Shown here piece after piece: positions 1,729-37,461 of a stretch of 41,714 nt of DNA. The stretch lies in assembly GCF_055900595.2 (NCBI RefSeq), contig NZ_JBVWEU010000004.1; one strand, 5' to 3'. The position numbers and the translations under genes were made by a program. Within the stretch, counting starts at the first letter, position 1, and each line of letters begins with the position of its first letter. The notes under the pieces were generated by a model. It saw only the letters and a list, made by a program, of their open reading frames with translations, was not told the DNA's origin and searched no databases. This stretch comes from a plasmid.

Positions 1729-2934
1729 ATGGACAATATTGAGCAGTTACGGAAAGTCGCTACACGTGCAGGTAAGCTTCTGACATCTTTGAGCGAAAGT
1801 ATCCGACAGCAAAAAGAGGAATTGAAGCTTACCGAGTTCTATCAGGAATACAGCAAAGCCGCTCTGTATAAGCTGCCTAAGCTCAGTAAAGGCAGTGTTG
1901 AGTATGCTGTGTCCGAAATGGAAGCCGGTGGCTACATTTTTAAAAAGAAACCTTCTGGTAATACGATGAAATACGCGATGACGATTCAGAATGTCATCGA
2001 TCTGTATAACCATCGTAAAGTACCGAAGTACAGGGATCGCTTCGATAAAGCCTTTACGATTTTTGTATGTAATCTTAAAGGTGGTGGTTCCAAGACAGTT
2101 TCTACCGCTTCATTATCACATGCTTTTCGAGCTCATCCTCAGCTTCTGTTCGAAGACCTGCGTATTCTGGCCATCGATTTCGATCCGCAGGCATCTCTGA
2201 CAATGTTCCTGAGCCATGAGAATTCAGTGGGCTTGGTTGAAAATACGGCTGCTCAGGCCATGCTCCAGAACGTGTCTCGTGAAGAATTACTTTCCGATTT
2301 TATAGTACCGTCTATTATCCCTGGTGTTGATGTAATCCCCGCTTCCATTGACGATGCATTCCTTGCTGAAGGCTGGAAGGGATTGTGTGAAGAACATCTG
2401 CCAGGGAAAAATATTCATGCGGTGCTTAAAGAGAACATTATCGACAAGCTCCAGCATGACTACGACTTTATTTTCCTTGATAGTGGTCCTCACCTTGATG
2501 CGTTCCTGAAAAACTGCATTGGGGCGGCAGACCTGATGTTGACCCCTCTTCCACCGGCGACGGTTGATTTTCATTCTTCCCTGAAGTTTGTGGCCAGCCT
2601 CCCTGCCCTCATAGATTCCATCGAAATGGATGGGCACACCTGCAATCTCATCGGTAATGTCGGCTTCATGTCCAAGATCCTGAACAAGTCTGATCACAAA
2701 ATTTGCCATAGTCAGGCCAAAGAGGTTTTCGGTGCCGATATGCTAGACATGGTTCTGCCAAGACTGGATGGTTTCGAACGTTGTGGGGAGACTTTTGACA
2801 CAGTTATTTCAGCAAATCCAGCAACCTATGATGGAAGTACAGAGGCACTAAAAAGCGCAAAATCAGCAGCGGAAGACTTTGCGAAGGCAGTCTTTGATCG
2901 CATCGAGTTCATTCGTACTAACGGAGGTATGTGA
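1729..2934 (+). CDS. parA: Type Ia partition ATPase ParA/SopA family, 401 aa
   Basis: Deviant Walker A NLKGGGSKT, large N-terminal extension, followed by parB with a TGATG overlap. Confidence 0.9.
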   Translation: MDNIEQLRKVATRAGKLLTSLSESIRQQKEELKLTEFYQEYSKAALYKLPKLSKGSVEYAVSEMEAGGYIFKKKPSGNTMKYAMTIQNVIDLYNHRKVPKYRDRFDKAFTIFVCNLKGGGSKTVSTASLSHAFRAHPQLLFEDLRILAIDFDPQASLTMFLSHENSVGLVENTAAQAMLQNVSREELLSDFIVPSIIPGVDVIPASIDDAFLAEGWKGLCEEHLPGKNIHAVLKENIIDKLQHDYDFIFLDSGPHLDAFLKNCIGAADLMLTPLPPATVDFHSSLKFVASLPALIDSIEMDGHTCNLIGNVGFMSKILNKSDHKICHSQAKEVFGADMLDMVLPRLDGFERCGETFDTVISANPATYDGSTEALKSAKSAAEDFAKAVFDRIEFIRTNGGM

Positions 2935-3908
2935 TGTCGAATGAGAAAAGAAAAACCATCGGCAGACAGTTAAATACCCAGGCGTCAATTGCGGAAATGA
3001 CGGACACCGGTAGAAGCCAGGTATTTACCTTAAAAACCGGCAGGAAGGTAACGTTCAGGTTTGTTCGGGTGCCTGCATCTGAAGTTGAAAGTAAGACCTT
3101 CGTAAACCAGGAAAACAACGGAAGAGATCAACTTGCACTGACCAGGGAATCCCTGAAATCCATTATCCAGACGATTAAGTTTCAGCAGTTCTTTCCCTGT
3201 ATTGGTATTAAGCAAAGTGAAAGGATTGAGATACTGGATGGTTCAAGACGGCGAGCCTCAGCAATTTTTGTCCGTACAGGCCTTGATGTAATGGTTACCG
3301 AAGAGCATTTATCAGCTGATGAAGCTCGCCAACTGGCTAAAGATATCCAGACAGCTAAAGAACATAATCTTCGGGAGATTGGCCTGAGATTGATCGCTCT
3401 TAAAGAGTCCGGATTTAATCAAAAGGAAATTGCTGAACTGGAGGGGTTATCTCAAGCTAAAGTTACCAGGGCGCTGCAGGCGGCGGCCGTACCGCAAGAC
3501 TTGATTTCTCTGTTCCCGGTTCAGTCGGAGCTATCGTTTAGTGACTATAAACTTCTTTTAGAAGTTAATGAAAAACTCAGTGAAAAGGGATTAACGCCTG
3601 AAGAACTCATTCAGTCTGTATCAGCTCAGCTCGATGCAATTTTGAGTGAAGGCGAGCGACCAGAAGACGAACAGAAAGCCAGTATACTGAAGCTGATTTC
3701 TCAGGCATCTCAGGCATTGATAGATCCATCTCCCAAGGAAAAGTCAGTGGTTTCCCCACTCTGGTCTTTTGAAGAAAAGGACAAGTTCGCGCGTAAGCGT
3801 GTGAAAGGGCGTACGCTGACTTATGAGTTTAGCCGTATGTCAAAAGTGATTCAGGATGAACTGGACAAGGCTATCAACGAGGTCCTTGACAGAAATTTGA
3901 GTCAATAA
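2934..3908 (+). CDS. parB: Partition centromere-binding protein ParB/SopB family, about 324 aa
   Basis: ParB-box motif ILDGSRRRAS, HTH region QKEIAELEGLSQAKVTRAL. ATG 2934 overlaps the parA stop (GTG 2931 is an alternative start). Confidence 0.9.
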   Translation: MSNEKRKTIGRQLNTQASIAEMTDTGRSQVFTLKTGRKVTFRFVRVPASEVESKTFVNQENNGRDQLALTRESLKSIIQTIKFQQFFPCIGIKQSERIEILDGSRRRASAIFVRTGLDVMVTEEHLSADEARQLAKDIQTAKEHNLREIGLRLIALKESGFNQKEIAELEGLSQAKVTRALQAAAVPQDLISLFPVQSELSFSDYKLLLEVNEKLSEKGLTPEELIQSVSAQLDAILSEGERPEDEQKASILKLISQASQALIDPSPKEKSVVSPLWSFEEKDKFARKRVKGRTLTYEFSRMSKVIQDELDKAINEVLDRNLSQ

Positions 3909-8752: not shown

Positions 8753-8803
8753 CATAAATCAGCACACATGAGCCTGTCATTTGACAAATTTTTGTCATGA
8801 AGA

Positions 8804-9155
8804 TGGGCGGATTTCCACACAGCACCGGCGCCCGGTAAGGTGGGCGGATTCCCACACGGCACCGGCGCCCGGCAAGATGGGCGGATTTCCACACAGCACC
8901 GGCGCCCGGTAAGGTGGGCGGATTTCCACACAGCACCGGCGCCCGGCAAGGTGGGCGGATTCCCACACGGCACCGGCGCCCGGCAAGATGGGCGGATTTC
9001 CACACAGCACCGGCGCCCGGTAAGGTGGGCGGATTTCCACACAGCACCGGCGCCCGGCAAGGTGGGCGGATTCCCACACGGCACCGGCGCGCGGCAAGGT
9101 GGGCGGATTTCCACACGGCACCGGCGCCCGGCAAGGTGGGCCGATTCCCATATCG
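8804..9155 (+). repeat. Second iteron array: 10 copies of a 37-bp unit (G/A)TGGGCGGATT(T/C)CCACAC(A/G)GCACCGGCGCCCGG(C/T)AAG, starts 8804-9137, with a 111-bp higher-order pattern
   Basis: Periodicity counted directly. Same position relative to the truncated rep as array 928-1337, with a related core (TTTCCACACAG vs TTTCCCACAG). Confidence 0.9.
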
Positions 9156-9641: not shown

Positions 9642-10698
9642 GGCTTTGTTGAATAAATCGAACTTTTGCTGAGTTGAAGGATCAGATCACGCATCTTCCC
9701 GACAACGCAGACCATTCCGTGGCAAAGCAAAAGTTCAAAATAACCAACTGGCCCACCTACAATAAAGCCCTCATCAACCGTGGCTCCATAACTTTCTGGC
9801 TGGATGATGAAGCTATTCAGGCCTGGTATGAGTCGGCAACGCCTTCATCACGGGGAAGACCTCAGCGCTATTCTGATCTCGCCATCACCACCGTTCTGGT
9901 CATTAAACGCGTGTTCAGGTTGACCCTGCGGGCTGCACAGGGTTTTATTGATTCCATTTTTACACTGATGAATGTTCCGTTGCGCTGCCCGGATTACACC
10001 AGTGTCAGCAAGCGCGCAAAGTCGGTTAATGTCAGTTTCAAAACGTTCACCCGGGGTGAAATCGCGCATCTGGTGATTGATTCCACCGGGCTGAAGGTCT
10101 TTGGTGAAGGCGAATGGAAAGTCAAAAAGCATGGCCAGGAACGCCGTCGTATATGGCGAAAGTTGCATCTGGCAGTTGACAGCAACACACATGAAATCAT
10201 CTGTGCAAACCTGTCGCTGAACAATGTGACGGACTCAGAAGCCTTCCCGGGTCTTATCCGGCAGACTCACAGAAAAATCAGGGCAGCATCGGCAGACGGC
10301 GCTTACGACACCCAACTCTGTCACGATGAACTGCGGCGTAAGAAAATCAGCGCGCTTATCCCGCCCCGAAAAGGCGCGGGTTACTGGCCCGGTGAATATG
10401 CAGACCGTAACCGTGCTGTTGCGAATCAGCGGCTGACCGGGAGTAATGCGCGGTGGAAATGGACAACAGATTACAACCGTCGCTCGATAGCGGAAACGGC
10501 GATGTACCGGGTAAAACAGCTGTTCGGAGGTTCACTGACACTGCGTGACTACGATGGTCAGGTTGCAGAGGCTATGGCCCTGGTACGAGCGCTGAACAAA
10601 ATGACGAAAGCAGGTATGCCTGAAAGCGTGCGTATTGCCTGAAAACACAACCCGCTACGGGGGAGACTTACCCGAAATCTGATTTATTCAACAAAGCC
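9642..10698 (+). mobile_element. IS903-like insertion sequence (IS5 family), 1057 bp, complete
   Basis: 18-bp terminal inverted repeats GGCTTTGTTGAATAAATC / GATTTATTCAACAAAGCC. The sequence matches the recalled IS903 left end. Confidence 0.9.
9674..10642 (+). CDS. IS903 DDE transposase (ORF track 322 aa; GTG at 9719 would give the expected 307 aa)
   Basis: Single long ORF filling the IS. IS5-family transposase sequence. Confidence 0.88.
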   Translation: MKDQITHLPDNADHSVAKQKFKITNWPTYNKALINRGSITFWLDDEAIQAWYESATPSSRGRPQRYSDLAITTVLVIKRVFRLTLRAAQGFIDSIFTLMNVPLRCPDYTSVSKRAKSVNVSFKTFTRGEIAHLVIDSTGLKVFGEGEWKVKKHGQERRRIWRKLHLAVDSNTHEIICANLSLNNVTDSEAFPGLIRQTHRKIRAASADGAYDTQLCHDELRRKKISALIPPRKGAGYWPGEYADRNRAVANQRLTGSNARWKWTTDYNRRSIAETAMYRVKQLFGGSLTLRDYDGQVAEAMALVRALNKMTKAGMPESVRIA

Positions 10699-10781
10699 GC
10701 GCGGGGCTAACAGGTAAGATGAAATTAAGGTTTTACGAACACTGCCACTGTAATTAATTACCGCTACTTTCATAAATCACC

Positions 10782-11168
10782 TCAGAATTTTTTGTTGAAC
10801 TTCTTAGGGTCGAAATTCTCACCGATTTTCTTGAAGAATTCTTTATCAATAATGCCGGGACTCTCTGCTTTTTTACTTTCCTGCACTTCAGGCTCAGACG
10901 GTTGTGTATTGTGCAATACACTTTCCGCTGCACCCTTCGCGCTACTCTTATCATGCGTATTGTGCAATACATTTTTTCGGTTTTGCCGCGTTCTATACAG
11001 TGCCATCTCAAGCCCTTTGGCTGTTACCGAAAAGCTGTATTCGCTGTCGAGGATTTCAGCAATTTCATGCCGCGTTAGCCCTCTGTCCAGCCAGTTCTCG
11101 ATTTCATTTAGGCGCAATCTGACAGCAGCCGATAAGTTGCGGGGTTTCAGATCTGCTGGTTTATTCAT
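10782..11168 (-). CDS. Hypothetical 128-aa protein with an N-terminal HTH-like segment (DRGLTRHEIAEILD) and a low-complexity, lysine-rich tail
   Basis: ORF with RBS GGAGGGGG. Preceded by an 11-bp-phased repeat array. No family recognised. Confidence 0.6.
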   Translation of the reverse strand: MNKPADLKPRNLSAAVRLRLNEIENWLDRGLTRHEIAEILDSEYSFSVTAKGLEMALYRTRQNRKNVLHNTHDKSSAKGAAESVLHNTQPSEPEVQESKKAESPGIIDKEFFKKIGENFDPKKFNKKF

Positions 11169-11229
11169 AACCCCCTCCGTTGTATGAAAATGACTCTACA
11201 ACACTCGTAAGAAGGGGTCAATCGAGTTT

Positions 11230-11380
11230 TGTAGTTTATCTGTAGTTTTATTGTAGTCTATTTGTAGTCTGTCACGTTTTTTGTAGTTTATTTGTAGTTT
11301 TATTGTAGTCTATTTGTAGTCTTACAACACTAAGGCAAAACGTTTTTTGTAGTTTATCTGTAGTTTATCTGTAGTTTTTG
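11230..11380. repeat. Eleven TGTAGT(T/C)T(A/T)T(C/T) units at strict 11-bp phasing in three clusters (4 at 11230-11270, 4 at 11282-11322, 3 at 11348-11380). Clusters 1 and 2 are a 52-bp-offset duplication (40/41 identical)
   Basis: Unit starts counted at 11230, 11241, 11252, 11263, 11282, 11293, 11304, 11315, 11348, 11359 and 11370. TACAACACT flanks lie at 11197 and 11323. Confidence 0.85.
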
Positions 11381-11388
11381 GTTGCTCA

Positions 11389-11412
11389 GATGGTCATGCA
11401 AGCATGACCATC
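11389..11412. repeat. Perfect 11-bp inverted repeat GATGGTCATGC-AA-GCATGACCATC
   Basis: Read directly. Lies between the TGTAGT array and an AT-rich tract that has further short repeats (CCCTTAACCT x2, GCGTGAT-AA-ATCACGC, GGTATTAC x2, ACTGATTTAAA x2). Confidence 0.8.
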
Positions 11413-11716
11413 AAAGAATAGGACGCTTTTTAGCCAAATGCCCCTTAACCTACGGAGATCGCCCTACCAAAAAAAGATGATTTTTTATCCCTTAACCTGC
11501 TATACACCTAACGCAGCGTGATAAATCACGCTATCGCACTGATTTAAAAGAAAAAAAACAAAATTTAGCCATGCTGCGGTATTACCCAGGTATTACAAAT
11601 CAAATCTAAATTACTGATTTAAATAACTTTTTATTTATTACTTTGGTAATACTATGATTTCACCGTATTAGACACCCTTTTTTCGTTTAAAAAATGCACA
11701 AATTGAGGACTGAATG

Positions 11717-11981
11717 GGCTTTGTTGAATAAATCGAACTTTTGCTGAGTTGAAGGATCAGATCACGCATCTTCCCGACAACGCAGACCGTTCCGTGGCAA
11801 AGCAAAAGTTCAAAATAACCAACTGGCCCACCTACAATAAAGCCCTCATCAACCGTGGCTCCATAACTTTCTGGCTGGATGATGAAGCTATTCAGGCCTG
11901 GTATGAGTCAGCAACACCTTCTTCACGAGGCAGACCTCAGCGCTATTCTGACCTTGCCATCACGACTGTGCTGGTCATTAA
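11717..11981 (+). mobile_element. IS903 left-end fragment (265 bp), truncated by the Tn1721 IR
   Basis: Near-identical to 9642-9906. Homology ends at CATTAA|GGGGAGCCC. Confidence 0.9.
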
Positions 11982-12019
11982 GGGGAGCCCGCAGAATTCG
12001 GAAAAAATCGTACGCTAAG
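11982..12019 (+). repeat. Tn1721-type 38-bp terminal inverted repeat (IRR-II)
   Basis: GGGGAGCCCGCAGAATTCGGAAAAAATCGTACGCTAAG, as recalled for Tn1721. Confidence 0.9.
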
Positions 12020-13767
12020 GTTTTCCGGGCATCCGTAAGGGCCGAAACTTCCCGTCTTCCAGTCTGCGGCTCTGCCGCCAGACGTAATCGCCGGTTAGGT
12101 TGATGTGCTCCCAGCCCAGCGGCGACAGGAATTGCAGCAGCTCGCCGTCCACCGGCTTGCCGGCCTCGACCAACCCCTGGGTGGCGCGTTCCAGGTACAC
12201 CGTGTTCCACAGCACGATAGCCGCCGTCACCAGGTTGAGGCCGCTGGCCCGGTAGCGCTGCTGCTCGAAGCTCCGATCCCTGATTTCCCCAAGGCGGTTG
12301 AAGAACACCGCCCTGGCCAGCGAGTTGCGCGCCTCACCTTTGTTCAGGCCGGCATGCACGCGGCGGCGCAGTTCAACACTTTGCAGCCAGTCCAGGATGA
12401 ACAGCGTGCGCTCGATCCGGCCCAGCTCGCGCAGGGCCACGGCCAGTCCGTTCTGGCGCGGGTAGCTGCCGAGCTTGCGCAGCATCAGCGAGGCGGTGAC
12501 GGTGCCCTGCTTGATCGAGCTGGCCAGGCGCAGGATGTCGTCCCAGTGGGCACGCACGTGCTTGATGTTCAGGGTGCCGCCGATCAGCGGGCGCAACGTC
12601 GGGTAGGCTTGCACGCCCTGCGGCACGTACAGCTTGGTTTCGCCGAGGTCGCGGATGCGCGGCGCGAAGCGGAAGCCTAGCAGGTGCATCAGGGCAAAGA
12701 CGTGATCGGTGAAGCCGGCCGTGTCGGTGTAGTGCTCCTCGATCCGCAGGTCGGACTCGTGGTACAGCAGGCCGTCGAGCACATAGGTGGAATCGCGGAC
12801 GCCGACATTCACCACGCGGGTGCTGAACGGCGCGTACTGGTCGGAGATATGGGTATAGAACAGCCGTCCCGGCTCGCTACCGTACTTCGGGTTGACGTGC
12901 CCGGTGCTCTCGCCCCGGCCACCCGCGCGGAAGCGCTGGCCATCGGAGGATGAGGTCGTGCCGTCGCCCCAGTGGGCGGCAAAGGCGTGGCGATACTGGT
13001 GGTTGACCAGCTCGGCCAAGGCCGCCGAATAGGTTTCGTCGCGGATGTGCCAGGCTTGCAGCCAGGACAGCTTGGCGTAGGTCAGGCCGGGGCTCGACTC
13101 GGCCATCTTGGTCAGCCCGAGGTTGATCGCATCACCGAGGATTGCGGACAGCAGCAACGTCCTGTCTTTGGCCTCGGCCCCGTCCTTCAAGTGGGTGAAG
13201 TGGCGGCTGAAGCCCGTCCAGTCGTCCACGTCCATCAGCAGTTCGGTGATCTTGATGCGCGGCAGTAACTGGCTGGTTTGGTCGATCAGCGCCTGCGCCC
13301 GATCCGGCACCGCCGCATCCAGCGGGGTGATTTTCAGCCCTGACTCGGTGAGGATGGCATCGGGCAGCTCGTTGTCCTTGGCCAGGCGGGTGACGGTGGC
13401 CAACTGCTCGTCCAGCAGCTGCAAACGCTCTTCCAGGTACTGGTCGCTGTTCGGGTTGATCGCCAGGGGCAGGGCCTGCTCGCGCTTGAGTGCGGCGAAC
13501 TTCTCGGCCGGCAGCAGGTAGTCGTCGAAGTCGCGGAACTGCCGCGAGCCCTTGACCCAGATGTCGCCGGAGCGCAGGGCGTTCTTCAGCTCGGACAGGG
13601 CGCAGATTTCGTAGAATTTCCGGTCGAGGCCTTCCGGGGTGATCACCAGCGGCTTCCAGCGCGGCTTGATGAAGGCCGTGGGTGCATCGGCCGGCACCTT
13701 GCGCAGGTTGTCGGCGTTCATCTCACGCAGGGTCTGCACGGCTGCCAGCACGCCTTGCGCGGCCGGC
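12015..13767 (-). pseudogene. tnpA: 5-prime-truncated tnpA copy (Tn1721 delta-tnpA of the tet module)
   Basis: Matches the C-terminal 583 codons of the tnpA at 17503-25424 (one synonymous nucleotide difference seen at 12635). Identity ends at 13767 (GCGCGGCCGGC). Confidence 0.9.
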
Positions 13768-31252: not shown

Positions 31253-32044
31253 CTAACCAAGGGCTTTGGATATTTTCAAGGCATCTGATAAAGACTTAAC
31301 ATCATGGGTGCGGAGATAATCTGCACCTTTTTTGTATGCATACATTTCTGCTGCAAGAGTTGGTGCTAAACGAGATTTCACATCGGTTCCAGTTATTTTA
31401 CCTAAGAATGATTTCCGTGACACTGCAATCATTACTTGCAAATTAAAAGCTTCTTGAATTTCAGGGAAACGCTTCAAAACAAGAATAGATGTTTCTGGAT
31501 TAGAGCCTAAAAAGAAGCCCATACCCGGATCAAGAATAATTCGTTCACGCTTTACACCAGCCTCAACTAAAGCAGCAATTCTTTCTTTAAAAAATTCCAT
31601 CATGGAAGTAAAAACCTCTTCCGGATTCGTTTCAACTTTAGTAGCTGCACCAATTCGCTGAACGGAGTGCATCAACACAAGTTTGCAATCTGACTTTGCC
31701 AAGCCTGAATAAATCTCAGGATAAGGAAAACCTTGAATATCATTAATAAAATCAACCTTTTGTTCTATGCAAAAACTCTGAACCTCAGGTTTAAATGTAT
31801 CAACAGAAATAGAAATGCCTTTTTCTTTTAAAGCCTTAATGACAGGTTTGAGTCTTTTGATTTCTTCCACAACGCCCACTTCAGTTGTATCAGGATTACT
31901 GGAAGCGGCTCCCAAATCAATCACATCTGCTCCATCTTCAACCAAATGCAGAGCATGCTCAATTGCCTTATCTGTATCTAAATAAAGTCCTCCATCGGAA
32001 AAACTATCGGTGGTTATATTTACGATTCCAAAAATCTTGCTCAT
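31253..32044 (-). CDS. sul3: Sulfonamide-resistant dihydropteroate synthase Sul3, 263 aa
   Basis: MSKIFGIVNITTDSFSDGGLYLDTDKAIEHALHLVEDGADVIDLGAASSNPDTTEVG... Confidence 0.93.
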   Translation of the reverse strand: MSKIFGIVNITTDSFSDGGLYLDTDKAIEHALHLVEDGADVIDLGAASSNPDTTEVGVVEEIKRLKPVIKALKEKGISISVDTFKPEVQSFCIEQKVDFINDIQGFPYPEIYSGLAKSDCKLVLMHSVQRIGAATKVETNPEEVFTSMMEFFKERIAALVEAGVKRERIILDPGMGFFLGSNPETSILVLKRFPEIQEAFNLQVMIAVSRKSFLGKITGTDVKSRLAPTLAAEMYAYKKGADYLRTHDVKSLSDALKISKALG

Positions 32045-32134
32045 ATCATTTTGCTTTGATTACAAAAGTAGCATTTATCTTAATTGACTAATTATCACTT
32101 ACGCAAATTGACACATTTTCCCTATCTTTGCAGC

Positions 32135-32758
32135 CTAATTTTTTTGTTTTAATTCATTATGAAAACTGATAGGAACTGTCATTTCGAGTTTTTCGCGGTT
32201 TTGGGTCAAAATTCGGTTTTTTCCCCGAACTACGACTGTTTTCGCACCCCGAACAACTAATCCAATCAGAATTTTCCGGCAACGCCGACTCCAAGAAGTG
32301 TAATTCCAGTCTATTTCTGCCGTCAACCCCTGATTCGCGTTAATGCGACAAAGCTCAAACACATAACTCCCCCACGAAGCCATATAAACTCCGATTTCGA
32401 GGTGTTATCCTGTTCCGCATAAACTTCGTTTTTGGGTATTATACCTACACCAAAGCAAGAAGATTATGGGTCCAAACTTCATTTGTATATTTTGCAAACA
32501 AATATCTGCCTGTCATATCTGTCGGAGTGTGGTGATACTCCTTTGCATTAAAAATGCGCTGATAAAAGGTAGTTCAGCAAAAGGCGAAACGCCAATAAAT
32601 ATATCTATAACCGGTTTCGCCCGTTGATTGGGTATCGCCGTGCTTCCGATATGTTCAATGGCTACGGCATGAGAACCGAAAAAATGGAGCAATTTTATTT
32701 TCTCTTCTTCAAAATTCTTTGTCTAATCCGGGTTATATTCCATAATTTCAATTTTCAT
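32135..32758 (-). pseudogene. Decayed GrpB/UPF0157-family gene: in-frame TAG at 32723-32725 plus frameshifts. The 82-aa track ORF 32135..32383 is its distal piece
   Basis: MKIEIMEYNPD*TKNFEEEKIKLLHFFGSHAVAIEHIGSTAIPNQRAKPVIDIFIGV, then GRYLFAKY and FELCRINANQGLTAEI in other frames. Confidence 0.5.
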
Positions 32759-37259: not shown

Positions 37260-37277
37260 AGACTCCTCCTATGCTCA

Positions 37278-37357
37278 AACTATAGGGCAGATTTGTCTAC
37301 GGGCTCGGGGTCACTCCAACTATAGGGCAGATTTGTCTACGGGCTCGGGGTCACTCC
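37278..37357. repeat. Exact tandem duplication (2 x 40 bp) of AACTATAGGGCAGATTTGTCTACGGGCTCGGGGTCACTCC, which is the terminal sequence of the IS3-family element
   Basis: 37278-37317 and 37318-37357 are identical. Confidence 0.9.
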
Positions 37358-37358
37358 A

Positions 37359-37399: not shown

Positions 37400-37461
37400 G
37401 TCGGGAGGATGCGTGATCTGATCCTTCAACTCAGCAAAAGTTCGATTTATTCAACAAAGCC
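37400..37461 (-). mobile_element. 62-bp IS903 left-end fragment (inverted relative to 9642 and 11717)
   Basis: The reverse complement equals IS903 nt 1-62 with one mismatch. Confidence 0.88.

Follow-up and report, generated by a model that had tools for sequence, protein, structure and literature searches.

An IS903-bracketed segment with an intact stbA gene

The window analysed here is a 41,714-nucleotide stretch of plasmid DNA. Between a complete and a truncated IS903 in direct orientation lies a segment of 1018 bp (exactly 10699-11716, as delimited in the initial annotation), which comprises an intact stbA gene, the complete intergenic region between stbA and traK, and a stub of stbB. Its genes and borders are the following.

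9642-10698, plus strand: complete IS903-type element (1057 bp) forming the left border (copy 1); transposase ORF at 9674-10642.
10699-10773, minus strand: 5' remnant of stbB, with its ATG at 10773-10771 and 25 codons (MKVAVINYSGSVRKTLISSYLLAPR), cut by the left IS903.
10782-11168, minus strand: stbA, an intact ORF of 128 aa, with an N-terminal three-helix helix-turn-helix (HTH), a disordered middle and a conserved C-terminal tail.
10906-10919 and 10957-10970: two copies of a 14-bp palindrome, GTATTGTGCAATAC, inside the stbA ORF and 51 bp apart.
11714-11716, plus strand: traK start codon, fused directly to the right IS903; the residual frame reads MGFVE*.
11717-11981, plus strand: second IS903 (copy 2), truncated and IS903B-like, forming the right border in the same orientation as copy 1.

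Copy 2 ends after IS position 265 (window 11981), where it is interrupted by the terminal repeat of a Tn3-family transposon of the TnAs1/Tn1721 kind that starts at 11982. Over these 265 bp the two copies are about 96% identical (about 4% difference). The 9-bp flanks of copy 1 are unlike each other (AACACAGAC and GCGCGGGGC), and there is thus no target-site duplication. Another plasmid (L003) shows the reverse situation, with a complete counterpart of copy 2 and a truncated counterpart of copy 1. Compared with a view to movement as a composite transposon, the outer flank of its complete copy 2 (CGTAGGCAA) does not match the left outer flank in the window (AACACAGAC), the two flanks being taken from different plasmids. 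A third IS903 remnant, at about 37408-37461, consists of 55 bp of the left end in inverted orientation and borders on a tandem duplication of 40 bp (37274-37358), located where another element ends. The IS903-like end at 37461 was considered as the missing part of copy 2 and rejected, as it belongs to this separate inverted 55-bp left-end remnant.

The encoded protein belongs to the StbA family

The initial annotation had recognised neither the 128-aa protein nor the repeat upstream of its gene, but the gene is annotated as 'plasmid stabilization protein StbA' in the RefSeq records that match the segment. The profile search that it had proposed identified the protein as a member of the NCBIfam equivalog StbA_2 (NF041290; 204 bits, cut-off 100). 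Database matches of the protein carry the precomputed label PF28167, and a Pfam-A scan of the 128 residues gave only a sub-threshold match to Clr5 (E = 0.026, failing the cut-off). A sequence search of the PDB with the same protein retrieved no StbA and only a spurious match to bS20, and a Foldseek search with the protein model gave nothing significant. The HTH-like N-terminus that had been noticed in the translation is borne out by the AlphaFold2 model, where residues ~11-60 have pLDDT > 90 and three helices (12-28, 33-43 and 50-73) make up an N-terminal HTH spanning residues ~12-73, followed by a disordered stretch (74-105, pLDDT < 50). StbA proteins occur in length variants of 111, 128, 143 and 150 aa, and the length differs in the unstructured C-terminal part.

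The 14-bp palindrome inside the gene has the form GTATTG(TG/CA)CAATAC, also written GTATTGYRCAATAC. Both of its copies in stbA encode VLHNT, and the number of VLHNT motifs, counted at the protein level, distinguishes the StbA length variants. Elsewhere in IncN backbones the same palindrome is intergenic (R46, L004, 30005-30018; L006, 5429-5442), and in R46 it is found between a -10-like box and the RBS of a SprT-like gene, 19 bp ahead of the gene start. The palindrome looks like the operator of an IncN regulator embedded in coding sequence.

A phased repeat array adjoins the stbA promoter

Upstream of stbA lie the following elements.

11193-11221, minus strand: predicted sigma-70 promoter of stbA, with -35 TTGACC (11221-11216), a 17-nt spacer and -10 TAGAGT (11198-11193).
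11227-11270, plus strand: repeat set 1, four units of 11 bp, each with the core TGTAGT; putative StbA array of the stbS kind.
11279-11322, plus strand: repeat set 2, also of four units and 98% identical to set 1.
11345-11379, plus strand: repeat set 3, with three units that keep the helical phase of set 2.

The segment contains eleven exact TGTAGT units on the plus strand, arranged 4+4+3 and spaced by 11 bp within each set (starts at 11230, 11241, 11252 and 11263; 11282, 11293, 11304 and 11315; 11348, 11359 and 11370). Direct counts reproduce the description in the initial annotation of eleven phased units in three clusters, the first two offset by 52 bp, and Tandem Repeats Finder returned a period of 11 for the array. 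Sets 1 and 2 form a 44-nt duplication with one mismatch (98% identical) at this offset, and sets 2 and 3, being spaced by 66 bp (6 x 11), are in phase. The motif occurs 23 times in the whole window on both strands, as compared to 9.3 +/- 3.0 times in shuffled sequences, none of which reached 23. The array lies between the stbA promoter (-35 at 11216-11221) and the predicted nic site (11503/11504), its first unit lying 6 bp upstream of the predicted -35, and a strong RBS (GGAGGGGG) precedes the stbA ATG.

The parent locus is the stbA–traK region of IncN plasmids

The sequence search for an intact parent locus, also proposed earlier, led to the stbA–traK region of IncN plasmids. In intact members the order is stbC-stbB-stbA, repeats, nic, traK-traJ-traI, where stbA-stbB-stbC (on the leading-region side) and traK-traJ-traI are divergent operons, and the DNA of our segment corresponds to the stbA–traK intergenic region. 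TraK is the accessory protein of the relaxosome, TraJ the coupling protein (T4CP) and TraI the MobF relaxase. The operon partners stbB, whose product is ParA-like, and stbC are complete in the parent-type loci L006, L008 and L011, of which the window carries a truncated member; similarly, the traK/trwA-type accessory gene, the T4CP gene and the MobF relaxase gene stand next to oriT in intact relatives, whereas the window keeps only the traK ATG. What has been lost is thus the whole of stbC, traJ and traI, stbB after codon 25 and traK after its ATG. The first 25 stbB codons directly abut the left IS903, in agreement with the earlier suggestion that IS903 would have taken away any partner gene downstream. 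Another plasmid (L005), 98.3% identical, continues beyond both IS903 junctions, into stbB (63 aa) on one side and traK on the other. The window locus differs from the IncN stbABC–oriT region in being truncated on both sides by IS903 and in residing within an IncR-type plasmid.

Intact StbB proteins carry a deviant Walker A motif, GSVGKT; at this place the stbB remnant encodes GSVRKT, as does L005 (6883-7074). As both share this change, StbB may already have been inactivated in a common ancestor, before the IS903 cut.

The gene order and orientation of the window locus are also those of R46/pKM101, pCU1 and their relatives. R46 has a nic core and hairpin nearly identical to those of the window, 11-bp phased direct repeats between stbA and nic followed by a palindrome before nic, as in the window, and a StbA C-terminal half and stbB start that are 85-95% identical. 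An alignment of the two loci shows conservation of the AT-rich half, a central block, the part of stbA that encodes the C-terminal half of the protein and the beginning of stbB, but no alignment was possible for the N-terminal half of the gene or for the repeat array. The two StbA proteins share 56% identity overall and differ in the N-terminal DNA-binding domain and its recognition helix, and the repeat core is TGATGTA in R46 as against TGTAGT in the window. The intact IncN plasmids L006, L008 and L011, on the other hand, have the StbA type and the TGTAGT repeats of the window.

StbA type and repeat sequence change together

We compared nine loci, all oriented alike, which fall into three types.

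Window-type StbA: window, L005, L006, L008 and L011 (5 loci); repeat core TGTAGT, 9-12 exact copies.
R46-type StbA: R46, pLJ1 and pT18 (3 loci); repeat core TGATGTA, 8-12 exact copies.
R388 StbA: R388 (1 locus); repeat core TTGCATCAT.

The type of the StbA N-terminus and the sequence of the repeats co-vary strictly (9/9 loci). All nine arrays are phased at 11 bp and have one and the same orientation with respect to stbA, and the copy number varies by whole 11-bp units only; all window-type loci keep a distance of 19 bp from set 1 to set 2. Since the DNA-binding domain and the repeats change together while the flanking DNA stays conserved, we infer that StbA binds these repeats. Along with homology, this co-variation is the strongest support here for a reading of the TGTAGT units by StbA, and it offers a natural specificity swap for studying how StbA recognises its centromere.

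One locus of this set has a composite structure. In pT18 (L009, NZ_CP017086.1), positions 1874-3395 are 99% identical to window 11394-12916, with an identical right junction (oriT, truncated IS903, TnAs1), and otherwise the locus has an R46-type stbA, TGATGTA repeats and intact stbB and stbC. The left and right halves of the module must therefore have different histories, and recombination within the conserved nic block is likely.

A complete MOBF origin of transfer

The features between the array and the traK start codon are listed below, a slash marking the nick.

11389-11399 and 11402-11412: perfect 11-bp inverted repeat, arms GATGGTCATGC and GCATGACCATC, with a 2-nt spacer.
11442-11451 and 11489-11498, minus strand: AGGTTAAGGG, present twice in direct orientation, close to nic on its 3' side (nicked strand).
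11499-11508, minus strand: nic core GGTGT/ATAGC, predicted nick 11504/11503, by homology to R388 ...GTATTGTCT/ATAGC.
11515-11532, minus strand: nic-proximal predicted hairpin AGCGTGAT-TT-ATCACGCT, ending 8 nt 5' of nic if the GCG extension of its base is included.
11533-11713: AT-rich distal half of oriT, GC 0.24-0.37, ending in the traK RBS (GAGGA, 11705-11709).

A hairpin followed by nic at such a spacing is an architecture typical of MOBF origins. We assigned nic through the R388 oligonucleotide and a statement on pKM101 (PMC4176350). The R388 substrate is GCGCACCGAAAGGTGCGTATTGTCT/ATAGCCCAGATTTAAGGA, and among MOBF nic sites G17, T18 and T23 are conserved, with T21 replaced by G in pKM101 and F (PMC4176350). 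The minus strand of the window around the predicted nic (...AGCGTGATTTATCACGCTGCGTTAGGTGT/ATAGCAGGTTAAGGGATA) fits these positions one by one: when GCGTTAGGTGT/ATAGCAGG is aligned to the R388 oligonucleotide GCGTATTGTCT/ATAGCCCAG, G17, T18 and T23 are conserved and position 21 is G, as in pKM101. From the base of the hairpin through the nic core, the window reads GCG-TTAGGTGT/ATAGC and R388 GCG-TATTGTCT/ATAGC. The window, L006 and R46 hardly differ in the block 11440-11540. The two AGGTTAAGGG copies are candidate sites for an accessory protein; at the equivalent place R388 carries two copies of TTTAAGGA.

The perfect inverted repeat (11389-11412) and the AT-rich tract with short repeats had both been noticed previously and are as described. 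The R46-type plasmids (R46, pLJ1 and pT18) have a palindrome at the same place with other arms (GTATTCATGC/GCATGAATAC), and both types (GATGGTCATGC and GTATTCATGC) keep a TCATGC-AA-GCATGA centre and perfect symmetry. As the arms have been swapped with position and symmetry retained, the symmetry itself seems to be maintained; the palindrome is probably the binding site of a dimeric protein, and the swap suggests that the specificity of this protein also differs between the two IncN types. In the AT-rich field, GC content reaches its minimum of 0.24-0.25 across 11550-11700, and the tract contains several short direct and inverted repeats, among them an inverted pair (11579-11595/11636-11652) and a direct pair (ACTGATTTAAA at 11538 and 11613). 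Its traK-proximal part is about 20% divergent from both R46 and L006, so that recognition by common IncN TraK proteins is not assured.

Transfer from the predicted nic would lead with the repeats and stbA, in agreement with the leading-region position of the stb genes (PMC3098194). With the traK, T4CP and relaxase genes no longer adjacent, this oriT is an orphan and would depend on a helper.

Comparison with the StbA system of R388

A related system is that of the IncW plasmid R388, whose StbA has a three-helix HTH N-terminal domain and an unstructured, non-conserved C-terminal domain. The window StbA has a similar layout, with a three-helix HTH at the N-terminus and disorder in the C-terminal part. 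BLASTP of the two proteins gives 30% identity over 57 N-terminal residues (E = 7e-5 in a single comparison), and an hhalign profile comparison recovers the same N-terminal stretch (E = 1.8e-4); the homology is thus limited to the N-terminal domain, at about 30% identity. In R388, StbA binds the stbDRs, which are 9-bp repeats separated by 2-bp spacers and grouped in two sets of five at the stbA promoter, and represses that promoter; together with the stbDRs it is sufficient to stabilise the plasmid when StbB is missing, and in that situation it blocks transfer (PMC3098194). The window likewise has sets of repeats with an 11-bp period at the stbA promoter, between stbA and a MOBF nic and in the same orientation relative to stbA. 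The two systems differ in the repeat unit (TTGCATCAT in R388, TGTAGT in the window), in the layout of the sets (2 x 5 units as against 4+4+3), in the position of the array, the second set of R388 overlapping the promoter whereas the window array stops 6 bp upstream of the -35, and in the absence of stbB and stbC from the window. The features of an R388-type StbA/stbS system found here are the N-terminal HTH homology, the unstructured C-terminal part and the 11-bp repeat sets.

Origin and possible function of the segment

Taken from the traK ATG to the end of stbA, the segment is intact and syntenic with IncN plasmids, from which it follows that it holds a stbS-like array and a complete MOBF oriT. 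We therefore consider, with a probability of roughly 0.9, that it is the stbA–traK region of an IncN-type conjugative plasmid, with a complete MOBF oriT, a stbS-like StbA array and an intact stbA, whose flanks were removed by IS903. Family, synteny and the nic core uphold StbA/stbS and oriT among the candidates initially put forward for the phased repeats; family and synteny speak against the other two, ParR/parC and iterons.

By analogy with R388, StbA monomers would bind successive direct repeats through their N-terminal HTH and polymerise along one face of the helix, and StbA bound to the array would repress transcription from the neighbouring stbA promoter and anchor the plasmid to the nucleoid, leading to segregation independent of StbB. 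The oriT would be nicked and mobilised only if a co-resident IncN plasmid supplied TraK, TraI, TraJ, a T4SS and StbB in trans, StbB presumably being needed, again as in R388, to relieve the block that StbA imposes on transfer. Because R388 StbA without StbB blocks transfer, the orphan module might hinder its own mobilisation. The segment is now a passenger in an IncR-type multiresistance plasmid. In practical terms, an orphan IncN oriT is predicted to make otherwise non-conjugative multiresistance plasmids mobilisable by IncN helpers, and the retained StbA and repeat array may add stability.

It is possible, if on balance unlikely, that the segment is an inert relic, derived from an IncN plasmid but inactive in its present host and persisting through linkage to resistance genes between IS copies. 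The loss of stbB, stbC, traK, traJ and traI would fit such a reading, as would the presence in the IncR backbone of its own parAB, one record in which the module is split by IS1, and near-identical copies in hundreds of plasmids, which point to recent spread rather than purifying selection. Indeed, with copies at least 99% identical in many plasmids, sequence conservation is uninformative on selection for function. However, the stbA ORF, its promoter and RBS, the eleven repeats and the whole oriT up to the traK ATG are all intact, R388 StbA and its stbDRs work without StbB (PMC3098194), and MOB-suite types the carriers as mobilizable, a call based on sequence.

Slightly more doubtful is the opposite view that the IS903-bracketed combination of oriT, stbS and stbA without stbB is not debris but a selected, portable 'mobilise-and-stabilise' module. 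If this were true, array-bound StbA would give non-conjugative IncR, IncX and IncF plasmids a tethering to the nucleoid that does not depend on StbB, with the adjacent oriT kept silent until an IncN helper brings StbB and a relaxosome; the co-varying types of StbA domain and repeat would represent specificity (incompatibility) classes within IncN, and a second IncN regulator would have its operators in the 14-bp palindromes within stbA.

An iteron-type replication origin or incompatibility determinant, where a Rep protein would recognise the 11-bp repeats as iterons, is very improbable. Tandem direct repeats beside an AT-rich region do superficially resemble an oriV, but 10699-11716 contains no Rep ORF, the replicon of R46 lies about 11 kb away (31743-32462), the segment is syntenic with the oriT between stbA and traK and includes a MOBF nic core, and the repeats co-vary with StbA and not with Rep; we rejected this reading on the grounds of synteny, the missing Rep gene and the StbA-linked repeats. 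Finally, a Type II ParR/parC centromere, in which a small ribbon-helix-helix adaptor would sit on phased repeats and a ParM-type partner would have been lost, shares with the locus only phased direct repeats upstream of a small DNA-binding protein gene, and is refuted by family assignment and synteny, the protein being modelled as an all-helical HTH of the StbA family and the truncated downstream partner being StbB, a ParA-like protein of the Walker type and not an actin-like ParM.

Distribution and host plasmid

The IncN-derived segment is ordinary and widely carried. Searches of PLSDB with the 1018 bp matched 1876 records, 532 at 99% identity or more and 1130 over most of the length. The left junction (IS903 to truncated stbB) is present in 598 PLSDB records and the right one (traK ATG to IS903) in 555; in one PLSDB record the module is split by IS1. 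Carriers among the records examined include IncR and IncX1 replicons. The host of the window is itself an IncR-type multiresistance mosaic, with parAB, umuDC, IS1, a tet(A) element of the Tn1721/TnAs1 kind and an integron.

The locus, the protein family and their presence in IncR plasmids are already known. IncR plasmids with KPC/NDM, such as pC275-2, have been described to carry dIS903B, stbA, IS903B, drepB and IS1X3 next to dTnAs1 (PMC11792461), and a review reports an oriT of R46 origin in IncR plasmids (PMC12310702). The segment of the pC275-2 type is structurally no different from that of the window. Both papers list genes, the repeats, the nic site and StbA specificity not being analysed there.

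Apart from the segment, the window contains two GC-rich tandem arrays, at 958-1336 (36 bp x 10.5 copies) and 8800-9150 (37 bp x 9.5 copies). The 37-bp array is part of the IncR backbone, with umuDC and a truncated rep region nearby, and its copy number differs among plasmids, with far more copies in L001 and L002. Both arrays may serve the IncR replicon as iterons or as centromere repeats.
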